Source of the DNA: a virus
Taxonomy: Duplodnaviria; Heunggongvirae; Uroviricota; Caudoviricetes
Virus record (IMG/VR): IMGVR_UViG_3300028888_000071
Span: 22,638 to 86,637 of that record
Direction: 5' to 3' (one strand)
DNA: 64,000 nucleotides
The position numbers were made by a program, and so were the translations under genes. How positions within the stretch are numbered: the first letter of the stretch is position 1; every line of letters starts with the position of its first letter. The notes beneath the pieces are model-generated. The model saw only the letters and a list, made by a program, of their open reading frames with translations. It was not told where the DNA came from and ran no database searches. This document shows, in pieces, positions 5,768-22,372 of this stretch.

Positions 5768-6050
5768 AAAATACAATGACAGCGACAGTATCAGTCCGTA
5801 TTATTTGGGGATATTCATGTATAATGGATATATGTTCAAACTCACATCAACTTTGAAAGATGACATGTCAGTGTGGAGAGTCGATGTGAGAACAAAAAAT
5901 GGAGAATGGACATTCGAGACGGGCAATCTGATATTTGCTAACACAGCAGCCTCATACACCATACAAGACACAAGCGTGAACATTTCATACGCATTCTCTA
6001 AAGGTGTCGAGATTGCAGAAACATATATAAAATCAGTTTACAACAATTAA
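5751..6050 (+). CDS. hypothetical protein (99 aa)
   Basis: ORF overlapping the preceding stop by a few codons (operon-like). Confidence 0.35.
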   Translation: MRKLFEKYNDSDSISPYYLGIFMYNGYMFKLTSTLKDDMSVWRVDVRTKNGEWTFETGNLIFANTAASYTIQDTSVNISYAFSKGVEIAETYIKSVYNN

Positions 6051-6237: not shown

Positions 6238-6816
6238 ATGAAGTTCGGCATAGATGTAGATGGCGTCCTGCGGAATCTGGTAGATGGCATCATATTCCTG
6301 TACAACGTGAAGTTCGGGAAGACAATAACCAGAAAAGATTTCGTGAACTATGACGTGAGAGACACTTTCCCAGACATACCGAATGCGAACGAGTATTTCT
6401 TTACTGGCAAGAACGCAGAGATTCTTTTGAGAATGTCTGCACCGGTAGATGGCGCTGTTGATGCTTACCATCTCTTGTCGGGAATAGGGACGGTGTACAT
6501 AGTGACAAGCCAAAGCACGTATGACAACATAAGCCACACTTTGTACTGGCTTCACAAGAACGACATAGACACTGACCAGATCTGTTTTGTCAGAGACAAG
6601 TCTATGATAGCAAGTCTTGACTATATGATTGATGACAACCCAGACAAGTTCATCGGGTGCACTGCTAAGCACGCGGCTTTGATTGACATGCCATACAACA
6701 GGAACGTCGATTTAGAAAAAATAAAAGAGACTTGCAGCTGTGAGACAGTGGAACGGTATCTGAGTCTTGCCGACTTTGCTGACAGATTCATAAGACAATC
6801 ATATAAAACCAAATAA
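6238..6816 (+). CDS. HAD-superfamily 5'(3')-deoxyribonucleotidase-like protein
   Basis: N-terminus MKFGIDVDGVL is the HAD motif I (DxDGV), as in NT5C-type dNMP nucleotidases. Size about 190 aa. Confidence 0.5.
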   Translation: MKFGIDVDGVLRNLVDGIIFLYNVKFGKTITRKDFVNYDVRDTFPDIPNANEYFFTGKNAEILLRMSAPVDGAVDAYHLLSGIGTVYIVTSQSTYDNISHTLYWLHKNDIDTDQICFVRDKSMIASLDYMIDDNPDKFIGCTAKHAALIDMPYNRNVDLEKIKETCSCETVERYLSLADFADRFIRQSYKTK

Positions 6817-7586: not shown

Positions 7587-8195
7587 TTATTTGGTTTGTT
7601 TTTTGTCAAACACATGTCTGATGAATTCTTCTTGGGCATTCTTGATTGTACCGTTCATGAAGTAGTTGTCGTCAGAAAGAAGCATGTAATGAATGAGGTT
7701 GTAGTTGACGCAGCAGCATTGTGTGACGAATTCTAAGTTGTATCTTTTTATGCACGGACTTATGTTGACATTGAACGGTGATTTCGTTATTATGTCAGTG
7801 TTCATTTTGAAAAGTGGTTTCTGCTTTGTAGAGTCAGCGACTGCTGGCCAGTCAGTTATCTCTTTCTCTATGTCAAAGCTGAACATCTTGTAGATGAACT
7901 CGAATATCTGGGCTCTCATCTTGTATGGAATGTGGTGCATGTCTATGCCATAGAACAAGTTTGACTTCTCTTTGTCTGGGCCGAGCGACATTATGTATGG
8001 CCGAGTGTCAATCATTTTCTTTTTGGCTGATGGCGGAAAATAGTTGAACACATAAAGCTTTCCGGGCCGTATGTCTTGCATCACAAGTGGACATTCTTTC
8101 AAAATGTCAGAAAACGCAAGACTTACTTTTGCTGCCGTCGTGCACTGATAAAGAACTTCTTTGATTTTGTCTCCTATAGAATATAAAGCTGCCAT
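7587..8195 (-). CDS. hypothetical protein (202 aa), probable virion/baseplate-cluster gene
   Basis: ORF in a leftward operon with the gp25-like gene. Confidence 0.45.
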   Translation of the reverse strand: MAALYSIGDKIKEVLYQCTTAAKVSLAFSDILKECPLVMQDIRPGKLYVFNYFPPSAKKKMIDTRPYIMSLGPDKEKSNLFYGIDMHHIPYKMRAQIFEFIYKMFSFDIEKEITDWPAVADSTKQKPLFKMNTDIITKSPFNVNISPCIKRYNLEFVTQCCCVNYNLIHYMLLSDDNYFMNGTIKNAQEEFIRHVFDKKQTK

Positions 8196-9484: not shown

Positions 9485-10108
9485 ATGAAAGTATTAGACA
9501 CAAACCAATTCATTTCTGAACGAATGAAAATCAGACCGGTGACTAATGCAGAACTGGACCAGATCCAGCAAGACATAGAAAACATGAAGTATGAACTCAC
9601 CGATAAAACAAAAAACATAGGAGACGGCACAACATTATATTGCATCAGAGCACTTAAAGACATCCCATCAGTAGAAGTCAAAAAAGGAGACTTAGGTGGC
9701 TGGATTGAGTCGTATGACAATCTAGACCAGAAAGGAGACTGCTGGGTTGCAGATGATGCTCGCGTGTTTGACCACGCTAGAGTGTATGGCAATGCTCAAG
9801 TGTATGGCCGTGCTGAAGTGTATGGCAATGCTAAAGTGTATGGCGATGCTAATGTATATAGTTTTGCTTATGTGTATGGTGACGCAGAAGTGTATGACAA
9901 TGCAAAAGTGTGTGGTCACACTTATGTGCACGATAAAGCTAAAGTGTATGACGCTGCCCAAGTCAATGGTTATGCTCATGTATTTGGCAACGCTAAAGTG
10001 TATAACAATGCTAAAGTGTATGGCAATACTTATGTATATGGCAATGCTCAAGTGCATGGCACTGCTGAAGTCAACTATGATGTCAAAGATAAAAGTATAG
10101 ACAAATAA
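9485..10108 (+). CDS. leader-domain + VYGNAx hexapeptide-repeat protein (family member 1)
   Basis: N-terminus MKVLDTNQFISERMKIRPVTNAELDQIQQD, then GDLGGWIESYDNLDQKGDCWVADDA, then about 50 tandem 6-aa units ((V)YGNAK/VYGDAE) encoded by 18-bp tandem repeats. Confidence 0.7.
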   Translation: MKVLDTNQFISERMKIRPVTNAELDQIQQDIENMKYELTDKTKNIGDGTTLYCIRALKDIPSVEVKKGDLGGWIESYDNLDQKGDCWVADDARVFDHARVYGNAQVYGRAEVYGNAKVYGDANVYSFAYVYGDAEVYDNAKVCGHTYVHDKAKVYDAAQVNGYAHVFGNAKVYNNAKVYGNTYVYGNAQVHGTAEVNYDVKDKSIDK

Positions 10109-10231: not shown

Positions 10232-11575
10232 ATGAGAACACGAACAATAGACAATTTTCTGGACGTTGACCAAAGGCAGTTCGCCGAATCTGTAGTTGAA
10301 GACCGTGCAATACCGAGCTGCATCGATGGCTTCAAGCCAGTGCAGAGAAAAATCATATACATCGCAAACAAGATATGGAAGACTGGAAACGAGAAGCCGA
10401 TGAAAGTGTTCCAGCTTGGCGGGCATGTCTCAAGCCAAGCGATGTATGCTCACGGCGATGCTTCACTCAACAAAGCAATCTCGCTCATGGGCACCACATA
10501 CAAGAACAGCCTCCCGCTGTTAGAAGGCCACGGGCAGTATGGCTCGCTCCGTGTGCCAGCAATGGGTGCTCCAAGATACATCGGCACGAAACTGTCCAAG
10601 AACTTCAGACTTCTCTACAAAGACTTCGAACTTCTCAAGAACAAGATAGACGAAGGCGTCGAGGTCGAGCCTGACTTCTTCTTGCCCATCGTCCCGACTA
10701 TACTGCTCAATGGAAGTTCCGGCATCGCAGTCGGATATTCGACTAACATCTTGAACAGGAACCCGCTTGATGTCATTGACGCTTGCACCGACTATCTCAA
10801 AGGCAAGAAAGTGAAAGAGCTCAAGCCGTGGTTCAGAGAGTTCAGCGGCACTTGGAAAAGAGATGACGAAATCGTGAACAAGTGGAACATATCAGGCGCA
10901 TACCAAGTAGTGAACACCACGACAGTGAAAGTCACTGAACTGCCGCCTGACATCACATTCGAGAAGTATGAAGACTGGCTCGAGACACTATGCACGAAAA
11001 AGACCATATTTGACTACGACAACAACAGTTCAAGCTCAGTCAACTACACATTGAAGTTCAATCGTGCGACTCTTAAAGACCTCATCTCTTCAGGCAAGCT
11101 GGAGAATGTGCTGAAAGTGAACTCGTCTGAGACAGAGAACATCGTCGCTATCGATGAGAACGGCAAGCTCAAAGTGTTCAGTCAAGCTGAAGACATCATA
11201 CCATATTTCTGTGAGTTCAGACTAAAATGGTACGACAAGAGAAAAGAATATATCATCAACAAATTGCAGCAAGAGCTTCTCGTGCTGTCAAACAAAGCAC
11301 GGTTCATCAAGTCAATCATCGACAAGAAACTCAAAGTAAACAATGTCCCGAAAGCAGAAGTGGTAGCTTGGCTTGCAGACAACAAGTTCGACAAGATGAA
11401 CGGCAGCTTTGACTACCTGACGAACATGGCTATCTACAATCTGACAAAAGAGAAATATGAAGAACTCCTCAAACAGAAAGAAGCGAAAGCCAAAGAACTT
11501 GATGACATGAAGAAACGTGTTCCGAAAGACATGTACATGGATGATTTGAAAACCCTTAGAAAAAGTGTTGCGTGA
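10232..11575 (+). CDS. type II DNA topoisomerase, GyrA-N-terminal-like subunit (T4 gp52-like)
   Basis: FKPVQRKIIY...GHVSSQAMYAHGDASLNKAISLMG...GQYGSL...GAPRYIGTKLS parallels GyrA KPVHRR...YHPHGD...GNFGS...AMRYTEARL, including the active-site Tyr. Confidence 0.7.
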   Translation: MRTRTIDNFLDVDQRQFAESVVEDRAIPSCIDGFKPVQRKIIYIANKIWKTGNEKPMKVFQLGGHVSSQAMYAHGDASLNKAISLMGTTYKNSLPLLEGHGQYGSLRVPAMGAPRYIGTKLSKNFRLLYKDFELLKNKIDEGVEVEPDFFLPIVPTILLNGSSGIAVGYSTNILNRNPLDVIDACTDYLKGKKVKELKPWFREFSGTWKRDDEIVNKWNISGAYQVVNTTTVKVTELPPDITFEKYEDWLETLCTKKTIFDYDNNSSSSVNYTLKFNRATLKDLISSGKLENVLKVNSSETENIVAIDENGKLKVFSQAEDIIPYFCEFRLKWYDKRKEYIINKLQQELLVLSNKARFIKSIIDKKLKVNNVPKAEVVAWLADNKFDKMNGSFDYLTNMAIYNLTKEKYEELLKQKEAKAKELDDMKKRVPKDMYMDDLKTLRKSVA

Positions 11576-11985
11576 TGTTTAGCGATTCCAAAAACATAAA
11601 ATGCACTGATGACTTGAACTGCGTCATATACAACCAGAATGCTTTTCTTGGCAAAGATGCTGGGTTAGCGTATCCGACTTCTGTGCAGTTTTCTGCGTCT
11701 TTCGTTCTGGACAGAAGGCCTCCTGATGTGACGTTCAACACATTGTACATAACGACAGACAACGAAAAGGTGAATTTCTACAATTCTACAATAGCTAGGA
11801 TAAGAAGATACCAGACATGCGGCAGAACAGTCCATATTGATGTGTCATATTTCTCAAATATGCTCGACAACACTATAGCTGAAGTATTGGTGAACCACGG
11901 AAAAGATATCAAATGCATAGCAAATGTAACCGAAAACGGTGGAGTAAGAATAAAAATATTGTTAGAACATGTTCAGCGACAATGA
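11572..11985 (+). CDS. MFSDN-family small protein (137 aa)
   Basis: Starts MMFSDSKNIKC. C-terminus ...IKILLEHVQ, paralogous to 12447-12836. Confidence 0.5.
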   Translation: MMFSDSKNIKCTDDLNCVIYNQNAFLGKDAGLAYPTSVQFSASFVLDRRPPDVTFNTLYITTDNEKVNFYNSTIARIRRYQTCGRTVHIDVSYFSNMLDNTIAEVLVNHGKDIKCIANVTENGGVRIKILLEHVQRQ

Positions 11986-12211
11986 CAACCTTAAAGATTT
12001 CGTGAAAGAAGACTTCATCCCGGAAACAGAAATGGATCCTCCGAGAGCAGAGCTTTTTTTCTACAATCTCATCGACAGTGAAAACATCAGCAAACTGATG
12101 AACGACTCAGACAGTTTGCGTGTGATGCCACAGACTAGTTTCACAGAATCATTTGCAGACTATGCGAAAACATTTGACGAATTCATCGTTGACTGGGACT
12201 CTAAAATTTGA
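11969..12211 (+). CDS. MFSDN-family small protein (80 aa)
   Basis: Starts MFSDNDNLKDF. The start is embedded in the GAACATGTTCAGCGACAA junction. Confidence 0.45.
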   Translation: MFSDNDNLKDFVKEDFIPETEMDPPRAELFFYNLIDSENISKLMNDSDSLRVMPQTSFTESFADYAKTFDEFIVDWDSKI

Positions 12212-12444
12212 GAGAAATGTTCAGTGACAATCCAAAACTTATAGACAATCATTTCTTGAAAGCCGGATACACATATTTCTGCAAAAAAGACTATGATGCG
12301 ATACCGCTCATGTATACTTATTATGGAACTAAATTCCACAAAGGAGAGTCATATGTATGCTTATTTGATGGCGTGTTGATGAATAAACAAGGCGGCTTCT
12401 TTTTTGAAAAAGACGTGAAGAATCCTAAAGAATATTTTGAATAG
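12208..12444 (+). CDS. MFSDN-family small protein (78 aa)
   Basis: MREMFSDNPKLID. Overlapping start/stop. Confidence 0.45.
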   Translation: MREMFSDNPKLIDNHFLKAGYTYFCKKDYDAIPLMYTYYGTKFHKGESYVCLFDGVLMNKQGGFFFEKDVKNPKEYFE

Positions 12445-12446
12445 CC

Positions 12447-12836
12447 ATGTTTAGTGACAACGAAAATCTCAAATGCATCATAACAGACAATCTTAACTGT
12501 GTCATTTATAGTCAAAGATTCATACCAGTAACTCACAACTTGCAGTTTTCGATATCTTTTTTTCTTGGCAAAAACAAAACAGCACCGGTGCTCACATCCC
12601 AAAACATAATAATCAAGACTGATGACAATTGCATAAACCGCAAAAGCTGCACTCTTGGCAAAGTGCTGAGATACAAGACGTGTGATAACAATGCTGCTGC
12701 TGATGTTTTATATTTTGCAATAGGCAGTGAACTTACACGGATACTGTTCAACAACGGCAAAGAATTGAGATGTGAAGCATACTGCACAGAAGCTGGCGCA
12801 ATCGAACTAAAAATATTTTTAGAACATGTTCAGTGA
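12447..12836 (+). CDS. MFSDN-family small protein (129 aa)
   Basis: MFSDNENLKCIITDNLNCVIYSQRF... ends ELKIFLEHVQ. Paralog of 11572-11985. Confidence 0.5.
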   Translation: MFSDNENLKCIITDNLNCVIYSQRFIPVTHNLQFSISFFLGKNKTAPVLTSQNIIIKTDDNCINRKSCTLGKVLRYKTCDNNAAADVLYFAIGSELTRILFNNGKELRCEAYCTEAGAIELKIFLEHVQ

Positions 12837-13077
12837 CAACAAAAGTTTAGTCGGCAAGATAGACACAGTTGACCCGGAAGTATTGAAGAATCATTACAGG
12901 TTCCACAAGTGCAGAAAATGCAAACTAGTTTATGCATATGATATAGATAAGCCAGACAACTCAATCATAGACTATGATGATGACTGGCACTATGACTGTC
13001 CGTATTGTGGAGCTGTCTGGTACAGGCCAGCAAGTCTAAACTTTCTTGGCTGCATAATCAGGAATATATTTTCTTGA
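12826..13077 (+). CDS. MFSDN-family small protein (83 aa), Cys-rich C-terminus
   Basis: MFSDNKSLVGK... CRKC...CPYCG (zinc-ribbon-like). Confidence 0.45.
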   Translation: MFSDNKSLVGKIDTVDPEVLKNHYRFHKCRKCKLVYAYDIDKPDNSIIDYDDDWHYDCPYCGAVWYRPASLNFLGCIIRNIFS

Positions 13078-13123: not shown

Positions 13124-16100
13124 ATGAAAATCCTCAAGTCTAATGAGTACTATTATTTCAACAGAAAAGAAATGCTGTCTGAGTCATTGTCTAATTTGTC
13201 TAAGAACGAGTCAGACTTTGGAAAATACCTCAGGACGAACACTCCCATGATATATGCGTTCATCACGAAAGACATCCCTGACGCGATAAAAGTCGGCTAC
13301 ACGAACCAGGGAGTGCAGAACCGCATCGACCAGTGGAAGAAGAAATACAACGACATAACAGTGCTCGGACAATGGACAGCGACAGAGATAAACCAGCTTG
13401 GAGAGAAAGTGTTTTTCATGGACTATCCGGTGCACGCGAAGATAGAAGGCCGTGGCTATGCTAACGTGAAGCCAGACGACAAACGGTTCCATCAGGTAGA
13501 GAACATCCATGTCAGCAAAGAGTTCTTCAACAAATACAAAGACATCACCAGAAATGAGGCTGACGCGCTTTCTGACAAGATAATCGGCGACATCATGGCT
13601 GAGTTGAAGAATGACATCAGAAACAACAAGTCAGCCATAAACCTGTACAAGTTCATCTTTGATGGAAGCAAAGCTCTTGCTGGCAAAGCAATGGGTGCTC
13701 CGAACACATTCTCACCGACACCGCTCCAGACAGACTGCATAAACGCGGCTACTAACGCGATACAACACGGCAAGACTGACTTGCTGATGGCTGCCGTGAT
13801 GAGGTTCGGCAAGACTGCAGCGACATACTGGATCATAAAGAACAACAACATCAAGTATGCTGTGGTGACTTCAGCAAAAGCTGACACCCGTGAAGCTTGG
13901 CGGAATGACATAAATCACGTCGACTTCATCGATGACTTCTGCTTCATAGAATTCGACGGCAACCACAGCCTTGCTGTCTCTGAAAAAGACGAGAACAGCG
14001 GAAGGATACACACCGAATTCTACCAAGATCCGGACCTCATCGACAAAAAGAGAAAAGAGGGCAAGACGGTCATCATATACGCGACATTGCAAGACTTGTC
14101 TGGAAAACACGACAGACTTGATGCAAGCCTTGGCGTGAAACAAGAAAAGACAGACAGGAAGATAAAAGACAAGCATAGATACATATTCGAGAACAAGCCT
14201 GAACTCATCGTCATAGACGAGACACATTACGGATCACATTCTAACATATACGGCAAAGCCACAGGACTCGCGAAAGACTATATGGACTACGATGACGTCA
14301 AGAAAGAGATGCAGAAAGAGAGCAAAGACAGGCAGAAACTTGACGAATACACAAGAAGCATCGACGCAGAAATAAGGCTGCAGTGTTCGGGAACGCCATA
14401 CTACATATTAGCAAGTGGTGAGTTCGGCGACAACTATGCTCACAAAGAAATCATTTCAGACGTGTCATTGTCTGACATGATCGAGTCTCGTGACAAATGG
14501 GTGGAAGAACATCCTGGCCAAGATGAGTCAGAATCACCATATTTCGGAATACCGAACATCTACAAGTTCGGGATGAAACTGACGAAGAAATGCATGTCAG
14601 CTATAAAGAAGTCAGACGAGAACACAGCAATGCATGTTCTGTTTGAGAACGACGGCAATGAGTTCAGACATAAAGACGCTGTCATCGACTTGATGGAGAA
14701 CATATTCGGCGCGAACAGCAAGAAGATGCCAGGGTGGTTGAACGAAGACAAGATAAAGAACGGAGAGATCTTCAAACATATGGTGATGGTGCTCCCGCAT
14801 ATCAATGACTGCAACTTGATGAGAGACTTGCTTGTTGATGAGAACATCGTCAACACAAAAGAAAGAGAAATCATCATCGCTGTCGAAAGAAGAAGCAAAC
14901 GAAGCACAGGCGGTTTCGGACTTGAAGCAGCAGCAAAAGATTCTGATGCTCTCAACACCAGACTTGAAGAACTTGAAGAGCAAGGCAAGCACAGCCTGAC
15001 AATAACAGTGAACCGTTTCTTGACGGGAGTGTCGATACCGCTGTGGGATTCTATGCTGTACATGAAAGACACGAGAAGCCCGCAAGAATATGACCAGAAC
15101 ATAATGAGACTCTGCACGAGATGTGTCGGCAAAGCTAAAGACAGTTCCGGCAAAGAAATCAAGATGTGCAAGAAAGCGAATGTCTATGTGGTGGACTTCA
15201 AGATAGACAGGATGTTCGAAATGGTGAACAGCACGGCGAATGCTCAGATTCTGGCATCAAAGAAAGAATGGTCAAAAGACTTGTTTGAGAAAATAGTCAA
15301 ACGGATGCTGAAGACGACGCCTCTCTATTCAGTCCCGAAAGACAGTGTCTACACAACTAACACAGACACCATCGTTTCTGGAATGCATGAGCTTTCTGTT
15401 GATGACTTGCTGAAGAAATACATCAACTACAACAGGACGAAATCTATTGAAGAGACAATCAACATAAATGACTTCAGTCATTTCTACAGCAACGTTGGCA
15501 ATGCTGCTTTGCTGAAAAGCTTCTCTGCAAACGAACTCAACTCAGCAAAAGAGATAATGAACGTTGAGGGAGAAGACTCGCCAGAACTGCAGCTCACGAA
15601 AAGCGGGACTCAGAAAAACACAGCCAGTGACAGCGGAAACAAACCAGGCAAGAACCCGGTTGCTGAAGACAACAAAGCAAGGCTGGCTAACATGATAAAG
15701 AGAATCTTGTATTCAGCGATGTGCATGGGAATGGAAAATGAAATAAACACCATACATGACTATCTTGACTTGGTGAAGAATGACAAGGAATGCAAGAAAA
15801 CATTCACAAGCTTCAAGATGAATGAGAAGACAGTGAACGACATCGTGAGCACAATGACAAGTGGAGAGCGGAGAATGCTGAGCTTCTATCTTTCTCAACT
15901 GAACTACATAACGAAAGACAAGACGATGAGTCCTGCCGAAAGAGTCCAGACATGCATGGCGAAACTTGGCAAGCTTGACAAAAGCGAGGTAATCACACCG
16001 AAGACAATCGTGAAGAAGATGATTGCCAAACTGGACAGAAGTGATTTCGAGAAAGCAGACAGCATTTTAGAGGTGAACTCAAAGAATGGTGAGTTCGTGA

Positions 16101-17200
16101 CAGAGATATATGAGCAATATGGCAAAAAAGTCGCGAACAAAGTGAAGATTGTGGCAAGCTCATCAATGACGAAGCAGTTCATCAGACTTGTATTGAGGAC
16201 ACTTGGACTGGATGAGAAGAATTTGATTGAGATTGATAACACGGACAATTACAACATAAAAGATTTTTTAGACACAGATATGACAAAAGAGAACAAAGGA
16301 AAGAAATTCGACATCTGCTTGATGAACCCGCCGTATGGTGGAACCCTTCATTTGAAATTTTTGGAAAAAGTCATTGACATAAGCAAAAATGTCATATCAA
16401 TACAGCCTATTATTTGGTTGTTTGGTCAAAATGATTTATCAAAACAATTGGACAAAATCAACACAATTAAAGAAAACATCAATACATATGAATCATCTAT
16501 TGAAAAAATAAACCAACAACATTTTGGGGATGCAGCAATAGGCCAAGACACTGGCATTATACATATAAACAAAGAAGTTAAGAATACAAAGACTGATGTC
16601 ACGTACAATGATAAAAAATATACAACAGATAATATATATGACATAAAAAAGTATGGTGATGACAAACTGTTGCACGAATTAGAAAAAACGCTGAAGCCTA
16701 TTTATGAAAAAGACAATTTTTTCAATCATTTAGTGTTTGGTCCTCGTTCAAAAGGGCATTTAGGCAAAAAGAAAAATGAAGAAAGAATTGATTTCAATCC
16801 AAATGTAGAAAATTTTATTGTAAACATGCCCCAAATGCGAGGACATGTAAACAGTGATGATTTTTACACCGCATGTGAAAAACAACTAAAACCTGTCAAA
16901 TATAAAGATTATTATAAAGGAAAAAAGACACCGTGGAGTTATATTGTTTGTGACAATAAAACTTATTGTGAACATATTATAAATTATCTGAAAACAGATT
17001 TTGTTAGAAGTTGTCTATATTTTAATAAATTTTCAACATTTTTTATCACACATGTAATTCCTTGGTTTGATTTCACTGACGAGCATTTTTCAAAGTCTCC
17101 AAGAGAGATTGATGACTGGTTGTTCAAAAAGTATGGCATAAGTGATGAGATTAGAAAACATATAGAAGAGATATTGCCAGATTATTATGGTATTAGATAA
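13124..17200 (+). CDS. large fusion protein: N-terminal SF2 helicase (DExH) + C-terminal gamma-class N6-adenine DNA methyltransferase
   Basis: Walker A MRFGKTAAT and LIVIDETHYGSH (DExH box). Later ITPKTIVKKMI (motif X), ILEVNSKNGEFV (motif I), FDICLMNPPYGG (motif IV NPPY), then about 290 aa of putative target-recognition region. Confidence 0.65.
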   Translation: MKILKSNEYYYFNRKEMLSESLSNLSKNESDFGKYLRTNTPMIYAFITKDIPDAIKVGYTNQGVQNRIDQWKKKYNDITVLGQWTATEINQLGEKVFFMDYPVHAKIEGRGYANVKPDDKRFHQVENIHVSKEFFNKYKDITRNEADALSDKIIGDIMAELKNDIRNNKSAINLYKFIFDGSKALAGKAMGAPNTFSPTPLQTDCINAATNAIQHGKTDLLMAAVMRFGKTAATYWIIKNNNIKYAVVTSAKADTREAWRNDINHVDFIDDFCFIEFDGNHSLAVSEKDENSGRIHTEFYQDPDLIDKKRKEGKTVIIYATLQDLSGKHDRLDASLGVKQEKTDRKIKDKHRYIFENKPELIVIDETHYGSHSNIYGKATGLAKDYMDYDDVKKEMQKESKDRQKLDEYTRSIDAEIRLQCSGTPYYILASGEFGDNYAHKEIISDVSLSDMIESRDKWVEEHPGQDESESPYFGIPNIYKFGMKLTKKCMSAIKKSDENTAMHVLFENDGNEFRHKDAVIDLMENIFGANSKKMPGWLNEDKIKNGEIFKHMVMVLPHINDCNLMRDLLVDENIVNTKEREIIIAVERRSKRSTGGFGLEAAAKDSDALNTRLEELEEQGKHSLTITVNRFLTGVSIPLWDSMLYMKDTRSPQEYDQNIMRLCTRCVGKAKDSSGKEIKMCKKANVYVVDFKIDRMFEMVNSTANAQILASKKEWSKDLFEKIVKRMLKTTPLYSVPKDSVYTTNTDTIVSGMHELSVDDLLKKYINYNRTKSIEETININDFSHFYSNVGNAALLKSFSANELNSAKEIMNVEGEDSPELQLTKSGTQKNTASDSGNKPGKNPVAEDNKARLANMIKRILYSAMCMGMENEINTIHDYLDLVKNDKECKKTFTSFKMNEKTVNDIVSTMTSGERRMLSFYLSQLNYITKDKTMSPAERVQTCMAKLGKLDKSEVITPKTIVKKMIAKLDRSDFEKADSILEVNSKNGEFVTEIYEQYGKKVANKVKIVASSSMTKQFIRLVLRTLGLDEKNLIEIDNTDNYNIKDFLDTDMTKENKGKKFDICLMNPPYGGTLHLKFLEKVIDISKNVISIQPIIWLFGQNDLSKQLDKINTIKENINTYESSIEKINQQHFGDAAIGQDTGIIHINKEVKNTKTDVTYNDKKYTTDNIYDIKKYGDDKLLHELEKTLKPIYEKDNFFNHLVFGPRSKGHLGKKKNEERIDFNPNVENFIVNMPQMRGHVNSDDFYTACEKQLKPVKYKDYYKGKKTPWSYIVCDNKTYCEHIINYLKTDFVRSCLYFNKFSTFFITHVIPWFDFTDEHFSKSPREIDDWLFKKYGISDEIRKHIEEILPDYYGIR
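16307..16336 (+). repeat. 30-nt exact direct repeat (copy A) spanning the NPPY motif
   Basis: ttcgacatctgcttgatgaacccgccgtat, identical to 17217-17246. Confidence 0.8.
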
Positions 17201-17936
17201 TGTTAATGTGATTAAGTTCGACATCTGCTTGATGAACCCGCCGTATAACAAGAATATGCATCTGAAGTTCTTAGCAAAAATGATAAAGACTGCTGGAACT
17301 GTCGTCAGTGTGCAGCCTGCTGGCTATCTGCTTGACTTGCCTGCTGTGTTTGGCTGGAAAACTACAACTTACCAGAAATTCGAACACAGTGTCTCATCAC
17401 ATATAAACACCATCGATTTGTTGTCAGCAAAAGAAATGAATGACATGTTCCGCATCGGCACTTTTGAAAAGCTCGGGATCTACCAATGTGACTTCAAGAA
17501 GTACGATATCTACAAGACAGTGTTCAAGTCAGATGAACGGAAAAATCTCTCTATTTTCCTCAAGACTATACAGCTTGTCTATGACGGAAAAGTCGACAAC
17601 ATAAAAAACCATATAAACATCTCAACTATACACGGACATCCTGACAGCGAAGACGAGTTTGACATCATAACGCCGCAGTACGAAATCGCAAAGAAAGTGA
17701 AGCCTGATGACATGACTGAACAGGAGTTCATCAACTGGCATGAAAGCTGCAGCACAAAGTTCATGAAATACTGCAACTTATTGACAAGACAAGGCCAGCA
17801 CCTGCAGCCACAATGGCTCCCATACATGAATGACTATACTAGAAAGTGGAATGACAAAGACTTTTACGATTTCTTCAATTTGACTGAAGAAGAACGGAAT
17901 CATATTGAACAGACAATGAAAAAGCACGTGTTATGA
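17187..17936 (+). CDS. N6-adenine DNA methyltransferase fragment/module (motif IV NPPY + divergent target-recognition region)
   Basis: Begins VIKFDICLMNPPYNKNMHLKFLAK, paralogous to aa about 1060-1090 of the upstream fusion protein. The downstream 230 aa are unrelated to the upstream copy. Confidence 0.55.
   Translation: MVLDNVNVIKFDICLMNPPYNKNMHLKFLAKMIKTAGTVVSVQPAGYLLDLPAVFGWKTTTYQKFEHSVSSHINTIDLLSAKEMNDMFRIGTFEKLGIYQCDFKKYDIYKTVFKSDERKNLSIFLKTIQLVYDGKVDNIKNHINISTIHGHPDSEDEFDIITPQYEIAKKVKPDDMTEQEFINWHESCSTKFMKYCNLLTRQGQHLQPQWLPYMNDYTRKWNDKDFYDFFNLTEEERNHIEQTMKKHVL
17217..17246 (+). repeat. 30-nt exact direct repeat (copy B)
   Basis: Identical to 16307-16336. Confidence 0.8.
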
Positions 17937-18394
17937 AAAATTTCTCCATAGAACAGTTTTTGAGTTTAGACAACTACACTACAGACGCTCGTCTTTCAAG
18001 ACGCAAAGGTTCTGGCGGCTCACAAGAGTTCTTCACGCCATATTCCATAGTGAAACGCATGGCAGACAAAATCTCAGATGAAGACTGGGCAAATCCAGAA
18101 AAGACATTCTTAGAACCTGCAGCCGGAAACGGGCAGTTCGTCTGCTACATAGTCTACAGGAGAATTATTTCTGGTGTAGATCCTGTCACAGTGTTCAAGA
18201 CACTTTACGCAACTGAACTGATGCAAGACAATGTCGATGAGATGAAGGCACGCTGTCTGGATCTCCTTGACGAAATGGAAGTCACTTATGACAAAGACGA
18301 AATCATTTCTATAATGGACCACAATTTCGTCTGCACTGACTTCTTCAACTGGGACTACATCAACTGGAAACCAGAAAAGAAAGCATTGTTCTAA
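17933..18394 (+). CDS. N6-adenine DNA methyltransferase module carrying motifs X and I (SAM-binding)
   Basis: FFTPYSIVKRMADKI (motif X) and FLEPAAGNGQFV (motif I, FxGxG). ATGA overlap with the preceding NPPY-containing ORF. Order IV-then-X/I is permuted relative to the upstream fused copy. Confidence 0.55.
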   Translation: MKNFSIEQFLSLDNYTTDARLSRRKGSGGSQEFFTPYSIVKRMADKISDEDWANPEKTFLEPAAGNGQFVCYIVYRRIISGVDPVTVFKTLYATELMQDNVDEMKARCLDLLDEMEVTYDKDEIISIMDHNFVCTDFFNWDYINWKPEKKALF

Positions 18395-18424
18395 ACCTAT
18401 AAATATTAAAACATAAAAACATAA

Positions 18425-19378
18425 ATGAAAATAAAGACATTATCAGAATATTCATTATCAATGTCAGTGAATGAAAACGCGAACTATAGTGGAAACATTC
18501 CCGCAAATGTCGCACGGTGTTTTGACAAGCTTTATTTTAGTGCATTTGACAACACAGAAAATGTGCAGATCTCGGCAAATGATAGAAACAGCACTTTGCT
18601 TGTCCGCAACTGCAAAGAACTTTATATGACAGTCAACGCAGCGTGCCGACTTGCTGACACTGATTGGTTCATATATTTCGAAGAACCTGTAGACTTGACA
18701 CTTGGTTCAGGGACACGCGGTTCTGACAAGATGTGGTTTGGCAATGAAGATGTCAGCAAAGTCCTGACTTGGCTTGCTTCAAATAAAGGCAACACATTCA
18801 ACAAGTTCACGGTGTACCGGTTTGACCTTGATGGTTATGATGGATTCACTGATGGCTTTCTTGATATGATTTACACGAACGAGCTTTGTTTCAAACAGTG
18901 TTCTCATTTGTTGAGTATGCAACTTCCTGACAAGACTGCGTTCAAGAACAAAGGACTTAAGTTCAATTCAGACGCGCCAAGAGCAAACACATTTTTCGCA
19001 GAAAATGGTTTGCTTACAGGCACAGCAGATGAAGTGAAGAGACATATGAGAAAAAGCTTCTTGAAAGATTTCGAGCATAAACAAGCCATAGAAAGTGAGG
19101 AGAGAGAACTAATTGAACAGTCAAGACTGCATCCACACAACATATATACATATAACTCTGATGAAACACATTACTGTGACTTGCGTGGAACCACACTTGA
19201 TTGGCGCTTTTCATCAGTAGATGACTACAAACGAAACTGGCCAAAAGACCTTGATATTGTAGATGGAATGTACATCAATGTTGATGATGAAACATTCAAG
19301 ATAACTAGTCATGATGTGATGGCAGGACCATTTGTCGATGGAGGAGTGTTGGTTGAACTTTCTTTAGAAAGAGCATAA
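18425..19378 (+). CDS. hypothetical protein (317 aa)
   Basis: ORF with no motif I can name. Confidence 0.5.
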   Translation: MKIKTLSEYSLSMSVNENANYSGNIPANVARCFDKLYFSAFDNTENVQISANDRNSTLLVRNCKELYMTVNAACRLADTDWFIYFEEPVDLTLGSGTRGSDKMWFGNEDVSKVLTWLASNKGNTFNKFTVYRFDLDGYDGFTDGFLDMIYTNELCFKQCSHLLSMQLPDKTAFKNKGLKFNSDAPRANTFFAENGLLTGTADEVKRHMRKSFLKDFEHKQAIESEERELIEQSRLHPHNIYTYNSDETHYCDLRGTTLDWRFSSVDDYKRNWPKDLDIVDGMYINVDDETFKITSHDVMAGPFVDGGVLVELSLERA

Positions 19379-19650
19379 TTCTTTGTTTCATTAAAACAAA
19401 ACTAGAATTTCATCTAATGACATCTATGACACTTTCTTGTCTTAAATATATAATTATATTAAATGATTTATAAATTCACTAGATGTCATCTAGATTGCTT
19501 TAAGTTCTAGAGTTCTCCAAAATCTAAAGTCATTCTAAAGTCATCTAAAAAGAAAAATCCTCCATTATTTAGATATAATCCAGATTTTGAATGTTTTTCA
19601 TATAATGAATTATATAATAACAAGTTACGATGAAAAAACTTTTAAAACAA
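19379..19650. promoter_or_regulatory. AT-rich noncoding region with iteron-like (A)GTCATCTA repeats and palindromes (candidate origin/regulatory hub)
   Basis: About 270 nt without a credible ORF between convergent genes. Contains tttcatctaatgacatcta, ctagatgtcatctag, agtcattctaaagtcatcta, and two cctccatt hairpin cores. Confidence 0.35.
19479..19493. promoter_or_regulatory. palindromic element CTAGATGTCATCTAG (copy 2)
   Basis: 15-nt palindrome. Same core as 7572 and 41747. Confidence 0.4.
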
Positions 19651-20425: not shown

Positions 20426-22372
20426 TTACAGTTTTGCGTTGAACATGTTCATTCCGCCGATGTTTCCAGCTCCGACAGCATACAGGCTTTTGTAGTCTGT
20501 GTTCTGGTCACCCTGCTCTCCGATTATCGTTATGATTTCGTGGAATGCATTTTCATCTTTCTCCAATTCAAAATCAGCCATCCATTCGAACTCCCTCGTG
20601 TCAAAGAACGCGTTTGCGTCGACACACGTCATCACTCTGTCGTCGTGGTCAGTGATTGCTGCCCAGCTGTTGCCGTTCCGTCCGAACAAGTTGAACTCTT
20701 GTATGGTGTTCTCTTCGTGGATCACCATGCGCCCATTGCCGATGTTCTTTTTCGCGTTCTGGCAATATATCAGCTTGTTGTCCCTGTTGAGTCTCAGTCC
20801 GGGCTCCAGTTTCTGGCTGTCTATGCTTCTCTTGAATCTCAATATAGTCGACACATCAAAGTCATTCCTGTCTCCAAACACTGTCTTGAGGCAGTTGAGG
20901 ACTTCGCCGCCAAAAGCATTCCATTCAAGAAGAATCTTCACGTTTTCTGGATTGAACACATTGTGTGAAAGTATGTAAAGCATTTTCGCGAACTGCATCA
21001 GGTGAATCCTGTTGTAAGCGAACATTCCGACTTGCTCCAGTCCGACGAAGTCTCTCGGATTGTTCGGAGCTTTTATGTTCTCCCAGTCTTTCTTGTCCAT
21101 CACTCTCATCTTGAACACATTGAGAACGGTGTTGTCACCCCCGTTGCCTTCTGACAAGTCGACGCTGAACAAGAACATGTCATCAGAATGCTTCGCCTCT
21201 TCTGGCTCGAAGTCTTGTTTCCATCTCAACAATGCAGCTTCATCAATCTCAGCATCTTCAAAGTCTGCGATCGGCTTTTCTACAAATATTTCTTTGTCTT
21301 CTTCAAGTCGTTTCAATGCATTCGGGCCAAGTAATAAACTACCTGTACTTAAGAATGAGTTGCCATATTGAGCGCCAAACCGTTCACGTCCAAGTTCTTC
21401 GTCGCCATTGCCAAGCTGAGCAATCTGGGTGTCCATCCAGTCGGGGCCTCTAAGTTTCCAGCATTTGTTCACTTTGTCCCAGTCAGGCACTTGCCACCAG
21501 TCTATGCGGAACGGCACGAATGAGTTTATGCCTTTTGTCGCAGCATCATATATCTTGTAGAAACGGTTCATTCCGTTTGGCGTCGAGGTGACTATGATTT
21601 TGCTGTCAGGCAGAGATGACACTGTCGGGTAGATGTTGTCGAAGAACTCGTCGATGATTCCCTTGTCCACATGCGCGAACTCATCCAAATACAAGCAGTG
21701 TATCGTGAAGCCGATGCCAGCTCTTTTAGTCGTCGCAGCGCCCATAAGTCTGCAGCCATTGTCGAACTTCCATTCAAGTGACGAGCCCTTTATGACTCCG
21801 GGCTTCATGTAGAACGGGACATTCTTTATCACATCAACAACCTTTCCGAGAATGTCGACTGCAGTCTTCTCGATGTTGCCGCACAAGAAGCAAGTCTTGT
21901 CGTAATTGAATAGAAGATACCAAGCGAGATATATAGATGAAGATATGGTGTTGTGGCTCAATATGCCGTTTGTGTAGTACCTGTGGTTCTCGTCATTCAC
22001 CATCAAGTCGTACATGCAGTGCTTGTATGGAAGCTGCTCAACTGATTTTACTGCGACTGCGCCATTGTCTGTGAACAACGTGTCTCCTGGCGTCAAGTCT
22101 CTAGTGAACTTTTCTCGCAAGTCTGATGTGAAGAAGACATGATCATCGGCACATTCTATCTCAATGCCATTCTCAAGAGTCACTCTCCACACCTGGTAGG
22201 GCACTGTACGGTGGACAAACATTGCTGCAGAATGTCCTTCATCTGTCGAAACCTCATCTTCAACTGGTTCTACACGAATGAACTTGTTGTCTATGACTGG
22301 ACAGTCCTTCCACATCAAGTATTCTATTTTCTCTATAAGTTTTCCGATTATGTTCTTTATAAATTTTCTCAT
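20426..22372 (-). CDS. terminase large subunit, C-terminal piece (P-loop Thr onward: ATPase remainder + nuclease), preceded by a 141-aa intein C-terminal segment
   Basis: After ...YDLMVNDENHRYYTNGILSHN|T the protein aligns with T4 gp17 from the P-loop Thr. LYLDEFAHV (Walker B) and IIVTSTPNGMNRFYKIY (gp17 IIITTTPNGLNHFYDIW) are present. There is no Walker A in this ORF, and three in-frame stops lie immediately upstream. Confidence 0.7.
   Translation of the reverse strand: MRKFIKNIIGKLIEKIEYLMWKDCPVIDNKFIRVEPVEDEVSTDEGHSAAMFVHRTVPYQVWRVTLENGIEIECADDHVFFTSDLREKFTRDLTPGDTLFTDNGAVAVKSVEQLPYKHCMYDLMVNDENHRYYTNGILSHNTISSSIYLAWYLLFNYDKTCFLCGNIEKTAVDILGKVVDVIKNVPFYMKPGVIKGSSLEWKFDNGCRLMGAATTKRAGIGFTIHCLYLDEFAHVDKGIIDEFFDNIYPTVSSLPDSKIIVTSTPNGMNRFYKIYDAATKGINSFVPFRIDWWQVPDWDKVNKCWKLRGPDWMDTQIAQLGNGDEELGRERFGAQYGNSFLSTGSLLLGPNALKRLEEDKEIFVEKPIADFEDAEIDEAALLRWKQDFEPEEAKHSDDMFLFSVDLSEGNGGDNTVLNVFKMRVMDKKDWENIKAPNNPRDFVGLEQVGMFAYNRIHLMQFAKMLYILSHNVFNPENVKILLEWNAFGGEVLNCLKTVFGDRNDFDVSTILRFKRSIDSQKLEPGLRLNRDNKLIYCQNAKKNIGNGRMVIHEENTIQEFNLFGRNGNSWAAITDHDDRVMTCVDANAFFDTREFEWMADFELEKDENAFHEIITIIGEQGDQNTDYKSLYAVGAGNIGGMNMFNAKL
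21950..22372 (-). mobile_element. intein (Hint domain) C-terminal portion: blocks B, F, G ending His-Asn, +1 Thr
   Basis: VWRVTLENGIEIECADDHVFFT (block B T..H motif), LTPGDTL, MYDLMVNDENHRYYTNGILSHN (blocks F/G) immediately before the extein Thr. Confidence 0.6.

Follow-up and report, generated by a model that had tools for sequence, protein, structure and literature searches.

The locus examined here, which is encoded by a giant gut phage and whose product is an adenine DNA methyltransferase (MTase) made of exchangeable halves, raises the question of why a large helicase-MTase fusion should be followed by a second MTase that is permuted and divided over two genes, and what the 30-nt repeat shared by the two signifies. 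The three open reading frames, the named motifs, the ATGA overlap of ORF2 with ORF3, and the exact repeat described in the original prediction were all present upon re-examination of the window, i.e., the entire 64,000-nucleotide stretch that was analysed (Table 1); the overlap of ORF1 with ORF2 is 14 nt. The motifs and domains of ORF1 supported its description as a helicase fused to an N6-adenine MTase and a target-recognition domain (TRD), and the order of the second MTase (motif IV, then motifs X and I, in two polypeptides) was likewise supported. Two independent assemblies (L009 and L010) are 99.96 to 100% identical to the window, and the arrangement is, therefore, not an assembly artefact.

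Table 1. Features of the MTase locus (positions in the window)
Feature	Position	Strand	Description
ORF1	13124..17200	+	1358 aa; T5orf172-like, SF2 helicase-like ATPase, helical linker, A*, module B allele a
T5orf172 (GIY-YIG clan) nuclease-like domain	13250..13531	+	aa 43-136; IYAF, KVGYT, R67, H104, SKEFF
SF2 helicase-like ATPase core	13709..15133	+	Walker A, DETH, SGTP, motif VI
Walker A MRFGKT	13799-13825	+	ORF1 helicase core
DETH	14216-14233	+	ORF1 aa 365-368
SGTP	14387-14404	+	ORF1 helicase core
Motif VI QEYDQxxxRLCTR	15083-15121	+	ORF1 helicase core
Variant N-half A*	15992..16273	+	motif X, motif I*, KIVASSSM, motif III IKDFLD
In-frame ATG, Met1053	16280..16282	+	9 codons before FDICLMNPPY; homologous to start codons of stand-alone IV-TRD genes
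NPPY box, copy 1	16307..16336	+	FDICLMNPPY, motif IV; 30-nt exact direct repeat, cassette junction
Variable part of module B(a)	16338..17059	+	ORF1 C-half remainder and TRD; replaced in L011, stand-alone in L048-L050
Conserved C-terminal tail of module B	17060..17200	+	PWFDF..DDWLFKKYGISDEIRKHIEEILPDYYGIR; 3' boundary of swapped cassette
ORF2	17187..17936	+	249 aa; stand-alone module B(b): MTase catalytic C-half from motif IV, plus TRD
NPPY box, copy 2	17217..17246	+	30-nt exact match to copy 1
ORF3	17933..18394	+	153 aa; stand-alone module A, canonical MTase N-half

We propose, with a probability of roughly 65%, that the locus combines a modular split N6-adenine MTase with a Type ISP-like ORF1, and that B modules are exchanged between phages at the NPPY box. 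The MTase system would be of the Eco57I/TaqI (gamma) type, with a catalytic Rossmann fold that is predicted to come naturally in two exchangeable modules, the cut lying between motifs III and IV. Module A would represent the AdoMet-binding N-terminal half (motifs X-I-II-III) and module B the C-terminal half from motif IV together with the TRD.

The products of ORF2 and ORF3 conform to this division. ORF3 harbors RRK, motif X (EFFTP), motif I (FLEPAAGNGQF), motif II (ELMQDN), motif III (CTDFFNW), and EFFTPYSIVKRM, and matches phrog_21201, annotated as ‘DNA methyltransferase’ (E = 1e-19), while phrog_11371 (383 positions) is covered by ORF2 at positions 2 to 102 and by ORF3 at positions 288 to 372. 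The fused form, IV-TRD-X-I, occurs in Aeromonas phages, as in ORF0215 of phage phiAS5 (417 aa, with Pfam N6_Mtase at aa 290 to 361). The predicted model of ORF2 (pLDDT 90) aligns with CamA and M.BseCI over 189 to 192 residues; M.TaqI and LlaBIII are further matches. All AdoMet motif residues are invariant in the ORF3 family, for which 565 matches were obtained, the best 120 of the 565 all being stand-alone proteins of 144 to 195 aa. ORF3-like genes are located 3' of IV-TRD genes in L006, L008, L013, L020, and L028, among others, the stop codon of one gene often overlapping the start codon of the next, and both ORF2 and ORF3 are under purifying selection, with dN/dS values relative to L011 of 0.098 and 0.077, respectively. 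It is very improbable, in our view, that the two ORFs are what remains of one permuted MTase gene decaying after a frameshift, as might be suggested by the fused proteins of Aeromonas phages and by the fact that ORF2 and ORF3 overlap by 4 nt and are read in different frames: each part has hundreds of stand-alone homologues, unrelated phages and plasmids share the same conserved split, the catalytic motifs are all intact, and the dN/dS of 0.08 to 0.10 was obtained at a dS of approximately 0.3. Judged by their homologues, ORF2 and ORF3 are members of a widespread two-gene split MTase rather than debris, and a two-subunit methyltransferase is the better of the two readings originally offered for them, given the 565 ORF3-like matches and the adjoining IV-TRD genes. 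Free module A (ORF3) and free module B allele b (ORF2), which would be translationally coupled via the ATGA overlap, most likely assemble non-covalently to form an MTase of specificity b.

The 30-nt repeat encodes FDICLMNPPY at aa 1062 to 1071 of ORF1 and aa 11 to 20 of ORF2, and 32 of 33 nt are identical when it is extended. Based on the codon usage of the window, the probability that all 10 codons coincide, the amino acids being identical, is approximately 3e-4, and just 3' of the boxes the same codon is used at only 5 of 12 shared residues; the codon identity of the repeat is beyond chance. The regions following NPPY, previously considered unrelated, proved to be homologous: the first 29 residues are 41% identical between ORF1 and ORF2, BLASTP aligned the two proteins with 58% identity over 40 aa from one residue before the box, and the corresponding family profiles aligned over 240 columns (HHalign probability of 99.95%, E = 2e-38).

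Comparison with other phages located the boundaries of module B. The nucleotide identity between the window and L011 is 94% up to position 16337 and 93% again from position 17060, with no nucleotide similarity and an amino acid identity of approximately 25% across 16338 to 17059; the similarity of ORF1 thus stops precisely where the NPPY box ends, and the L011 TRD differs. In L048 to L050, representing three samples, B(a) is encoded by a stand-alone gene (299 aa) downstream of an ORF3-like gene, with 96.96% identity to window positions 16303 to 17319 over 1018 nt and no similarity upstream of 16303; here the similarity sets in exactly where the box begins. Many ORF1 homologues align over only approximately 78% of the query, that is, as far as NPPY, and the module B tail is common to L006, Lak-B6, and L011. 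The break at the end of the box in L011 and the start at the box in L048 therefore define the box as a cassette-exchange junction between phages. At this repeated NPPY-coding box, the predicted DNA-recognition half has undergone a recent cassette exchange, and the recombination originally proposed to exchange TRDs is, accordingly, borne out by L011 and L048. The box would constitute the 5' joint of module B, and B modules would pass between phages by homologous recombination, one crossover falling at or near the box and the other either in the conserved 3' tail or in the core, likewise conserved, of the B gene that follows. Such exchange would move module B from a stand-alone to a helicase-fused context or back, and specificity would change as a result.

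Recombination between the two repeats within a population, which would generate two specificities through a 910-bp deletion fusing the helicase-A* part of ORF1 to the TRD of ORF2, is considered unlikely. The repeats are exact, the deletion product would be in frame (1300 aa), ORF2-type B modules are fused to ResIII helicases elsewhere (P0334 and P0354, 1076 to 1122 aa), and genuine inverted-repeat shufflons occur at the same gene in Lak relatives. However, because the repeats are direct, their recombination would only delete 910 bp, irreversibly and without a switch, and 30 nt is a short recombination substrate. No evidence was obtained for the intragenomic switching that had been envisaged, as all three assemblies (the window, L009, and L010) and the 94% identical relative L011 retain the full arrangement. 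A word search for ORF2 homologues yielded 52, not one of them a large protein, and no ORF2-type module was found on close ORF1 homologues. Furthermore, other phages conserve the box equally well (29 of 30 nt in L006 and 27 of 30 in L012), so that its identity is not specific to the ORF1/ORF2 pair.

The fused context is provided by ORF1, which is predicted to join a T5orf172 nuclease-like domain and an SF2 translocase-type ATPase to a conserved variant of module A (A*) and to allele a of module B. Its Pfam matches are ResIII and T5orf172, the latter correcting the earlier statement that no nuclease domain was seen. This N-terminal domain is nuclease-like by a Pfam score at the threshold (PF10544, E = 8e-4, 20.2 bits where the cutoff is 20), a level that one of seven homologues tested also attains, and by the invariance of I43, Y44, K56, G58, R67, and H104 from phage to bacterial plasmid homologues in an alignment (A5) that includes Arthrobacter and Lactococcus plasmid proteins. 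A PDB sequence search with the domain returned no match and thus no solved relative, and to our knowledge T5orf172 domains are not proven nucleases. The helicase motifs, including Walker A (MRFGKTAAT, aa 226 to 234), are invariant among aligned homologues. No A-like gene was present within 5 kb of three distant helicase relatives (L063 to L065).

In A*, motif X (ITPKTIVKKMI, aa 957 to 967) is followed by a motif I-like sequence (ILEVNSKNGEF, aa 981 to 991) in which Lys replaces the first Gly of GxG. This non-canonical motif (ILxVNxKxxEF) spans the whole ORF1 family, invariant N, K, and E replacing P and GxG in 50 of 50 aligned homologues as well as in the plasmid proteins, where the NSK.G signature recurs (ILEINSKTGLY and VLDINSKTGLY). 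The MTase of ORF1 itself may therefore be inactive or may work differently. In an AF2 model, A* and B fold as one complete MTase domain, 257 residues of which align with M.TaqI, and ORF1 may thus be self-sufficient.

Plasmid homologues of ORF1 consist of the same parts and are adjoined by a small ‘N-6 DNA methylase’ gene homologous to ORF3. It immediately precedes the gene for the helicase protein, which it overlaps or abuts, in four of six plasmid loci examined (Lactococcus, S. equorum, B. cereus, and Arthrobacter) and lies downstream with two intervening genes in L. amylolyticus; none was found in the Treponema locus, the record of which breaks off 23 nt before the B gene. In Arthrobacter, A, C-A*, and B each have a gene of their own, as do B and C-A* in Treponema, and the B proteins of the two (344 to 346 aa) start MSKKFD../MKFD..NPPY. 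In most relatives ORF3 directly follows the large gene and ORF2 is absent, so that ORF3 may pair primarily with ORF1 and not with ORF2. In addition, positions 83 to 169 of L006 are 93% identical to window positions 16250 to 16337, the L006 ATG aligning with that of Met1053, and of 68 distinct junctions, 60 have a Met among the 10 aa preceding FD..NPPY, where approximately 25% would be expected to; Met1053 is, therefore, a possible internal start.

These observations lend some weight to a tentative, less probable alternative, in which module B would serve two enzymes as a shared specificity subunit: A and B would form a free methyltransferase, and T5orf172-helicase-A* with B would form a translocating nuclease for the same site, unable to methylate because A* is a pseudo-half. 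The conserved Met would then start a free B(a) in fused genes, and ORF3 would serve both B(a) and the B(b) of ORF2. Consistent with this are the canonical A gene found beside the large protein from Firmicute/Actinobacterial plasmids to megaphages despite its own A* and B, the invariantly altered motif I, the separate B genes of Arthrobacter and Treponema, the same B(a) cassette working in both contexts (the window and L048), and the frequency of the upstream Met, to which MKFD before NPPY in Lactococcus, S. equorum, and L. amylolyticus may be added, with a weak AAAGGA 9 nt upstream in Lactococcus. However, the AF2 model yields a complete MTase from A* and B, the Met could persist by descent because the sequences are related rather than independent, B. 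cereus has NLKFD without a Met, and no SD-like signal precedes the internal ATG of the window, although genuine starts in the window also lack one.

A further, rather unlikely alternative holds that ORF1 acts in the manner of DarB, as a protein that is injected or made early, and that ORF2/ORF3 form an orphan MTase; the two would merely methylate phage DNA or shield it from host restriction, without a nuclease function. Orphan MTases are common in phages, hypervariable TRDs could follow host restriction-modification (R-M) specificities, and the nuclease activity of T5orf172 is unproven. The DnmA-YeeB-YeeC system of B. subtilis, which has the same three domain types as this locus, exhibited no restriction or anti-phage activity under the conditions tested (PMC9973331). 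The DarB comparison made in the original prediction was nevertheless not supported, as a tblastn search of ORF1 against 50,697 phage records returned no P1-type record and the domain order of P1 DarB is opposite to that of ORF1. Strong conservation (dN/dS of 0.06) is, moreover, seen both in the GIY-YIG-like core residues and in every ATPase motif, and the closest bacterial relatives of ORF1 are located on plasmids in R-M-like gene pairs, modelled in REBASE/PADLOC as Type IIG R-M enzymes. The PADLOC match of ORF1 itself is REase_MTase_IIG PDLC03626 (E = 7e-78).

In the main proposal, ORF1 resembles the Type ISP enzymes, a comparison that holds as a good functional analogy for its helicase, MTase, and TRD, whereas the defining Mrr nuclease appears to be substituted by the GIY-YIG-clan T5orf172 domain. 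By this analogy, ORF1 most likely reads an asymmetric site via TRD a and translocates with ATP, its target presumably being DNA without the phage's own methylation, i.e., that of the host or a competing phage. A precedent for the cassette exchange is provided by LlaGI and LlaBIII, whose nuclease, helicase, and MTase domains are >95% identical and whose recognition sites differ (PMC3553950).

The arrangement of the locus is real, as two independent metagenome assemblies, L009 (JGI) and L010 (ENA), are 99.96 to 100% identical across its whole length; the three ORFs, the overlaps between them, and the motifs quoted in the original prediction were all recovered. Under code 11, 86% of the densely coding window lies in open frames of at least 150 codons, which, together with the differing frames of ORF2 and ORF3, eliminated an alternative genetic code as the cause of the ORF boundaries. 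TAG is a sense codon in four contigs carrying the same gene family (L001, L004, L013, and L022, with 12 to 29 in-frame TAG codons in their ORF1 homologs); Lak-type relatives, including L001 and L004, decode it as Gln, and the window phage employs the standard code. A megablast search of the 5.3-kb region against phage records returned no match, no terminator was found on the + strand between the three ORFs, and a promoter scan produced uninformative consensus matches. The topoisomerase subunit encoded beside the locus shares 50 to 53% identity with those of uncultured phages of 460 to 640 kb and 35% identity with those of Lak megaphages. A 317-aa ORF (18425 to 19378) was dismissed as a component of the system, as it has no family match and is missing from L011, a 94% identical relative. 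The segment 3' of ORF3 which holds this ORF (18397 to 19401) constitutes an indel between these two close relatives.

Elsewhere in the window, five tandem overlapping small ORFs (78 to 137 aa) occupy positions 11572 to 13077, each with MFSDN or MFSDS at most three residues from the start; those of 137 and 129 aa are clear paralogs. A 648-aa terminase-like ORF on the - strand (20426 to 22372) contains an apparent insert of ~100 aa which starts with Cys (CPVIDNKF..), ends in ..NGILSHN immediately before a T, and resembles a mini-intein. The ORF at 9485 to 10108 encodes short YG(N/D)AxV-type repeats, and its periodic composition explains why this stretch is open on both strands and in two frames.

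Searches of ORF2 and ORF3 against Pfam and NCBIfam returned nothing significant (no Pfam match at an E value of ≤0.1), nor was ORF2 matched in PADLOC. ORF2 possesses the NPPY motif and no motif I, and ORF3 possesses a canonical motif I (FLEPAAGNGQF) and no NPPY, such that the full gamma-class set is present only jointly, on two chains. The former corresponds to a methyltransferase from motif IV onward with its TRD (the B module) and the latter to a free N-half (motifs X, I, II, and III). All of the best 120 of 565 ORF3 homologs are stand-alone proteins of 144 to 195 aa, and the family invariants comprise RRK, EFFTP (motif X), FLEPxxGxGxF (motif I), ELxxDN (motif II), and CxDFFxW (motif III). 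For ORF2, 52 close homologs of 240 to 365 aa were identified, and a B-module profile search returned 2,422 cluster representatives; among the best 150 of these matches, approximately half begin within a few residues of FD..NPPY. Approximately 40% of these 150 (e.g., P0250, P0259, and P0276) were observed to carry an extra ~100 to 160 aa at the N terminus, for a total of 340 to 436 aa, with a Met still located 2 to 3 residues before FD..NPPY (..NMPKFD.. or ..NDMKFD..).

The two small proteins match opposite ends of a single family, phrog_11371 (ORF2, E value of 1.2e-9, positions 2 to 102; ORF3, E value of 2e-14, positions 288 to 372), ORF3 also matches phrog_21201 (E value of 1e-19), and the C terminus of ORF1 matches positions 3 to 243 of phrog_11371 (E value of 3e-12). 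As both the IV-TRD and X-I parts are matched, the locus is assigned to the phage split methyltransferase family phrog_11371/phrog_21201. In Aeromonas phage phiAS5, ORF0215 represents one fused protein in the order IV-TRD-X-I, and in five relatives (L006, L008, L013, L020, and L028) the gene for a 241- to 309-aa protein starting at NPPY precedes an ORF3-like gene, with stop and start codons that often overlap. Given such natural fusions and this conserved linkage, the ORF2 and ORF3 products would be expected to assemble, and the two-subunit methyltransferase, which had been offered as an alternative in the original prediction, draws sequence-based support from a conserved two-gene family, its fused forms, and purifying selection. 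Relative to L011, ORF2 has a dN/dS of 0.098 and ORF3 one of 0.077, at a dS of ~0.3; these values, the many stand-alone homologs, and the invariant motifs exclude pseudogene decay. The view that ORF2 serves ORF1 as a silent donor cassette was likewise rejected, since the gene is complete, has many stand-alone homologs, and is under purifying selection. In the AF2 model of ORF2 (pLDDT of 90.4), 189 to 192 residues align with CamA and M.BseCI, and M.TaqI and LlaBIII were also matched; ORF2 therefore encodes a gamma-class catalytic C-half plus TRD. These modeled gamma-class neighbors, along with the lack of a Pfam match, argue against assignment of ORF2/ORF3 to the permuted beta-class methyltransferases.

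ORF1 belongs to a family of 2,587 members, mostly of 1350 to 1450 aa and many encoded on contigs of 250 to 715 kb. The original prediction had seen no nuclease domain in this protein; residues 43 to 136, however, match T5orf172 (GIY-YIG clan; Pfam match at threshold, reached likewise by one of seven homologs scanned from alignment A2), the core residues being invariant in phage and plasmid homologs. No Mrr or PD-(D/E)xK match was obtained for ORF1 in Pfam, NCBIfam, or PADLOC, phmmer returned no PDB sequence at an E value of ≤1, solved Type ISP chains included, and a profile of the N-terminal domain retrieved only noise from the PDB sequences. The helicase Walker A, DExH, SGTP, and VI motifs are invariant in the family. 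Residues 40 to 1035 match the REBASE-derived Type IIG model of PADLOC, REase_MTase_IIG PDLC03626 (E value of 7.4e-78), over profile positions 21 to 961 of 1359, leaving the C-terminal methyltransferase-TRD part of the profile unmatched, from which it follows that the B module of ORF1 is of a different, phage-type lineage. ORF1 possesses NPPY, and its motif I is noncanonical (ILEVNSKNGEF); the family consensus, ILLVNEKxGEF, has invariant N, K, and E where canonical enzymes have P and GxG, and the half which contains it is here termed the variant N-half. In the dominant megaphage layout (L004, L019, and L024), an ORF3-like gene directly follows the large gene and ORF2 is absent; the window and L011 are unusual in harboring an extra free B module between the two.

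The 30-nt repeat encoding FDICLMNPPY (the NPPY box) is exact, as had been claimed, and extends to 32/33 nt. All ten positions of the peptide use the same codon in both copies (P of ~3e-4 given the peptide and the codon usage of the window), whereas just 3' of the box an identical codon is used at 5 of 12 shared residues, and the identity of the repeat therefore represents a nucleotide-level discontinuity rather than motif conservation alone. The regions which follow NPPY are not, in contrast to the earlier description, unrelated: they share 58% identity over a 40-aa alignment starting one residue before the box, and HHalign, applied to an alignment of 48 ORF2 relatives and one of eight proteins of the ORF1 C-terminus type, returned a probability of 99.95% (E value of 2e-38) over 240 columns. 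The box recurs in other phages, with 29 of 30 positions identical in L006 and 27 of 30 in L012, while the AT-rich L004 encodes the same peptide with six synonymous differences, indicating that nucleotide identity in the box reflects a shared gene pool and not coding constraint.

Exchange at this box is apparent from comparison with relatives. Identity between the window and L011 is 94% up to position 16337, one base beyond the box; nucleotide similarity is then undetectable from 16338 to 17059 (where amino acid identity is ~25%), and identity of 93% resumes at 17060. The protein cluster of ORF1 includes 299- to 300-aa proteins representing stand-alone copies of its B module, and in contigs from three samples (L048 to L050) such a copy starts MKFDICLMNPPY, with an ORF3-like gene before it and another B gene after it. 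Positions 369 to 1385 of L048 are 96.96% identical to window positions 16303 to 17319 with no similarity upstream, and so this cassette has moved recently between stand-alone and helicase-fused contexts. The alignments place one crossover at the 5' edge of the NPPY box and a second within the conserved core of the B gene that follows. In L006, the sequence leading up to the start codon of B shares 93% identity with the motif III region of ORF1 and ends in a stop codon overlapping the ATG, which makes this the ORF1 junction in an unfused state. A 988-nt contig, L051 (Logan SRR8925820), contains solely a stand-alone gene for the same B allele (92.7% identity to window positions 16313 to 17199); its first and last 25 nt are identical, which suggests a circular or tandem unit or an assembly artifact.

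Recombination between the two boxes, which are direct repeats, would delete 910 bp and create an in-frame chimera of 1300 aa (computed), an architecture found elsewhere in P0334 and P0354, where ResIII is fused to an ORF2-type B module. The deletion form was present in no assembly, and a tblastn search of the ORF1 C terminus, ORF2, and ORF3 against the six frames of the 64 kb identified the known pair only, with no silent TRD cassettes. The predicted TRD swap by recombination at NPPY is thus upheld between genomes (L011 and L048) and not inside this one, where there is no evidence of switching; the observed exchange is not a reversible switch. An invertible TRD shufflon was also discounted for the window, which contains a direct repeat only, a complete second gene, and no inverted partial copies. 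In Lak relatives, by comparison, the same methyltransferase gene is followed by partial TRD copies in convergent orientation, located within inverted repeats (see the table). The repeat-enclosed segment of Lak-C1 matches Lak-B6 best when inverted (80% versus 65%), and ..PDYYNIRKGRD and ..NIKVEN, the C-terminal tails, are exchanged between strands. This structure, of which no mention was found in the Lak papers searched, resembles a phage-borne, invertible specificity shufflon.

Coordinates of the genes, the NPPY box, and the inverted repeats (nucleotide positions on the contig named)
Feature	Contig	Position	Details
ORF1	window	13124-17200 (+)	1358 aa
ORF2	window	17187-17936 (+)	249 aa
ORF3	window	17933-18394 (+)	153 aa
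NPPY box, ORF1 copy	window	16307-16336	30 nt
NPPY box, ORF2 copy	window	17217-17246	30 nt
Inverted repeat	L002 (Lak-B6; same in L016)	6432-6519 / 7668-7755	88 nt, 96.6%
Inverted repeat	L036	4822-4907 / 5848-5933	86 nt, 100%
Inverted repeat	L001	9388-9456 / 10662-10730	69 nt, 84%

Relatives of the system are also present on bacterial plasmids. Lactococcus cremoris pUC047G harbors a gene pair annotated as a small "N-6 DNA methylase" and an [quoted passage not shown] The small proteins of the Lactococcus, S. equorum, and B. cereus plasmids (230 to 253 aa) possess canonical FLEPAAGxGxF and no NPPY, are homologous to ORF3 (E values of 1e-9 to 6e-6), and are encoded directly 5' of, and overlapping or abutting, the gene for a 1437- to 1461-aa protein with a ResIII/SNF2-type helicase, xLExNSKTGLY, and (N)MKFD..NPPY plus TRD; one of the plasmid proteins, Lc_1461, has an extra DUF4145 domain. 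Although these pairs share only ~22% identity with the window system, T5orf172 (a segment aligned for Lactococcus and Arthrobacter only), the helicase, the variant N-half (xLExNSKxG), the B module with its MKFD..NPPY junction, and the adjacent small canonical N-half gene are all homologous. The small gene is directly upstream in four of the five plasmid loci having one and downstream, like ORF3, in L. amylolyticus. Arthrobacter pJ349-116 possesses three genes, encoding a small N-half, a T5orf172-helicase ending in a variant N-half, and a 346-aa MSKKFDVVIGNPPY..TRD protein, and in Treponema the B gene and the helicase-variant N-half gene are separate. Because these loci share the module set, the small canonical N-half is a conserved companion of the motor protein; the co-occurrence count with independently found helicase relatives is only partly informative, as 5 of its 10 loci were contigs already seen. 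We know of no characterized member of the plasmid pairs or of the PDLC03626 family.

We favor, with a probability of roughly 0.65, a model in which ORF2 and ORF3 form a two-subunit methyltransferase, ORF1 is a translocating, Type ISP-like enzyme possessing a TRD of its own, and B modules are exchanged at the NPPY box. A bolder and rather doubtful proposal treats the break in the methyltransferase fold as a functional point of restriction-modification design, with B as a shared specificity subunit: paired with the small canonical N-half (ORF3) it would methylate, and paired with a cofactor-blind pseudo N-half on the T5orf172-helicase motor it would read the same site, finding and destroying unmethylated DNA. 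Free B would come from the fused genes by way of a conserved internal start codon at the NPPY junction; of 68 distinct junctions, 60 have a Met no more than 10 residues before FD..NPPY, although this Met may be inherited, and B. cereus is without it. The variant motif I with its invariant Lys, the universal companion N-half gene, and the three-gene layout of Arthrobacter accord with a shared subunit, whereas the structural model of ORF1, in which the variant N-half and B fold into one complete domain, speaks against it. Were B shared, a single cassette swap would retarget modification and restriction together, in giant phages and plasmids, and the system would constitute a new organizational class of restriction-modification enzyme and a template for engineering methyltransferase specificity by swapping halves. 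The breakpoints at the NPPY box provide a concrete and testable account of the way in which DNA methylation, and possibly restriction, is retargeted by phages.

Permuted motif order, helicase-methyltransferase fusions, TRD swapping, and predicted T5orf172-helicase-methyltransferase proteins are already known or cataloged, and helicase-methyltransferase-TRD fusions and TRD swapping are features of Type ISP, IIG, and I systems. To our knowledge, a natural and stable split between motifs III and IV has not been described for the Rossmann fold of an N6-adenine methyltransferase. This stable split is new, as are the behavior of its halves as exchangeable genes (free, fused in either order, or motor fused), the pairing with a variant N-half on a motor protein, the mapped recombination joints, and the prevalence in megaphages, the system being near-universal in Lak-like megaphages. 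No description of a consistent pairing of a T5orf172-helicase plus variant N-half with a small canonical N-half was found, nor did the Lak megaphage papers searched mention methyltransferases.

The naturally split M.AquI and M.EcoHK31I, whose catalytic domain is put together from two polypeptides, resemble ORF2/ORF3 in this respect, but are C5-cytosine methyltransferases. The gamma-class M.TaqI, CamA, and M.BseCI, with a C-terminal TRD, are one polypeptide each, whereas ORF2 comprises motif IV onward only. Beta-class N6/N4 enzymes share the order IV..TRD..X-I, but they are single chains of another lineage, and ORF2/ORF3 adopt this order only at the gene level, spread over two chains. Jumbo phages have been noted to encode a circularly permuted M.EcoKI-like adenine methyltransferase (PMC7824862). 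As in the exchange at the NPPY box, phase-variable Type I hsdS invertons and TRD movement between restriction-modification genes exchange TRD segments at conserved flanks, with bacterial precedents for inversion and movement (PMC7672463, PMC3467074). The DarB likeness proposed for ORF1 was not borne out, as no similarity to DarB was detected by tblastn against 50,697 phage records, among which only Lak, Aeromonas, and uncultured phages matched ORF1, and P1 DarB, which is packaged into the virion, has the reverse domain order (N-terminal methyltransferase, C-terminal helicase). The conserved ATPase and GIY-YIG-like residues and the restriction-modification-like plasmid relatives suggest that ORF1 may be a phage weapon and not only a protective methyltransferase. 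Against this, the conserved DnmA-YeeB-YeeC cluster of B. subtilis, with an MmeI-related gamma N6-adenine methyltransferase, an SF2 helicase, and a T5orf172 protein, has no restriction phenotype in that host (PMC9973331); it and its Vibrio homologs are likened to ORF1 by described domain types, but comprise three separate genes with a complete, unsplit methyltransferase.

A close parallel to ORF1 is that with Type ISP enzymes, which holds for one chain that combines a nuclease-type domain at the N terminus, an SF2 helicase-like ATPase whose motifs are intact, an N6-adenine methyltransferase in gamma order, and a C-terminal TRD; the helicase-methyltransferase-TRD part of the predicted likeness thus stands, while the nuclease part does not, being Mrr (PD-(D/E)xK) in Type ISP and T5orf172 in ORF1. 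ORF1 further differs in its noncanonical motif I, in being phage encoded rather than part of a plasmid defense locus, and in that its close relatives are always accompanied by a separate small canonical N-half gene. Type ISP enzymes translocate in an ATP-driven manner, methylate one strand, and require two head-to-head unmodified sites for cleavage, and uncharacterized relatives with helicase domains and GIY-YIG nucleases have already been mentioned (PMC3553950). LlaGI and LlaBIII are >95% identical outside the TRD (PMC3553950), and the replacement of a TRD between such near-identical enzymes is mirrored by that between the window and L011.
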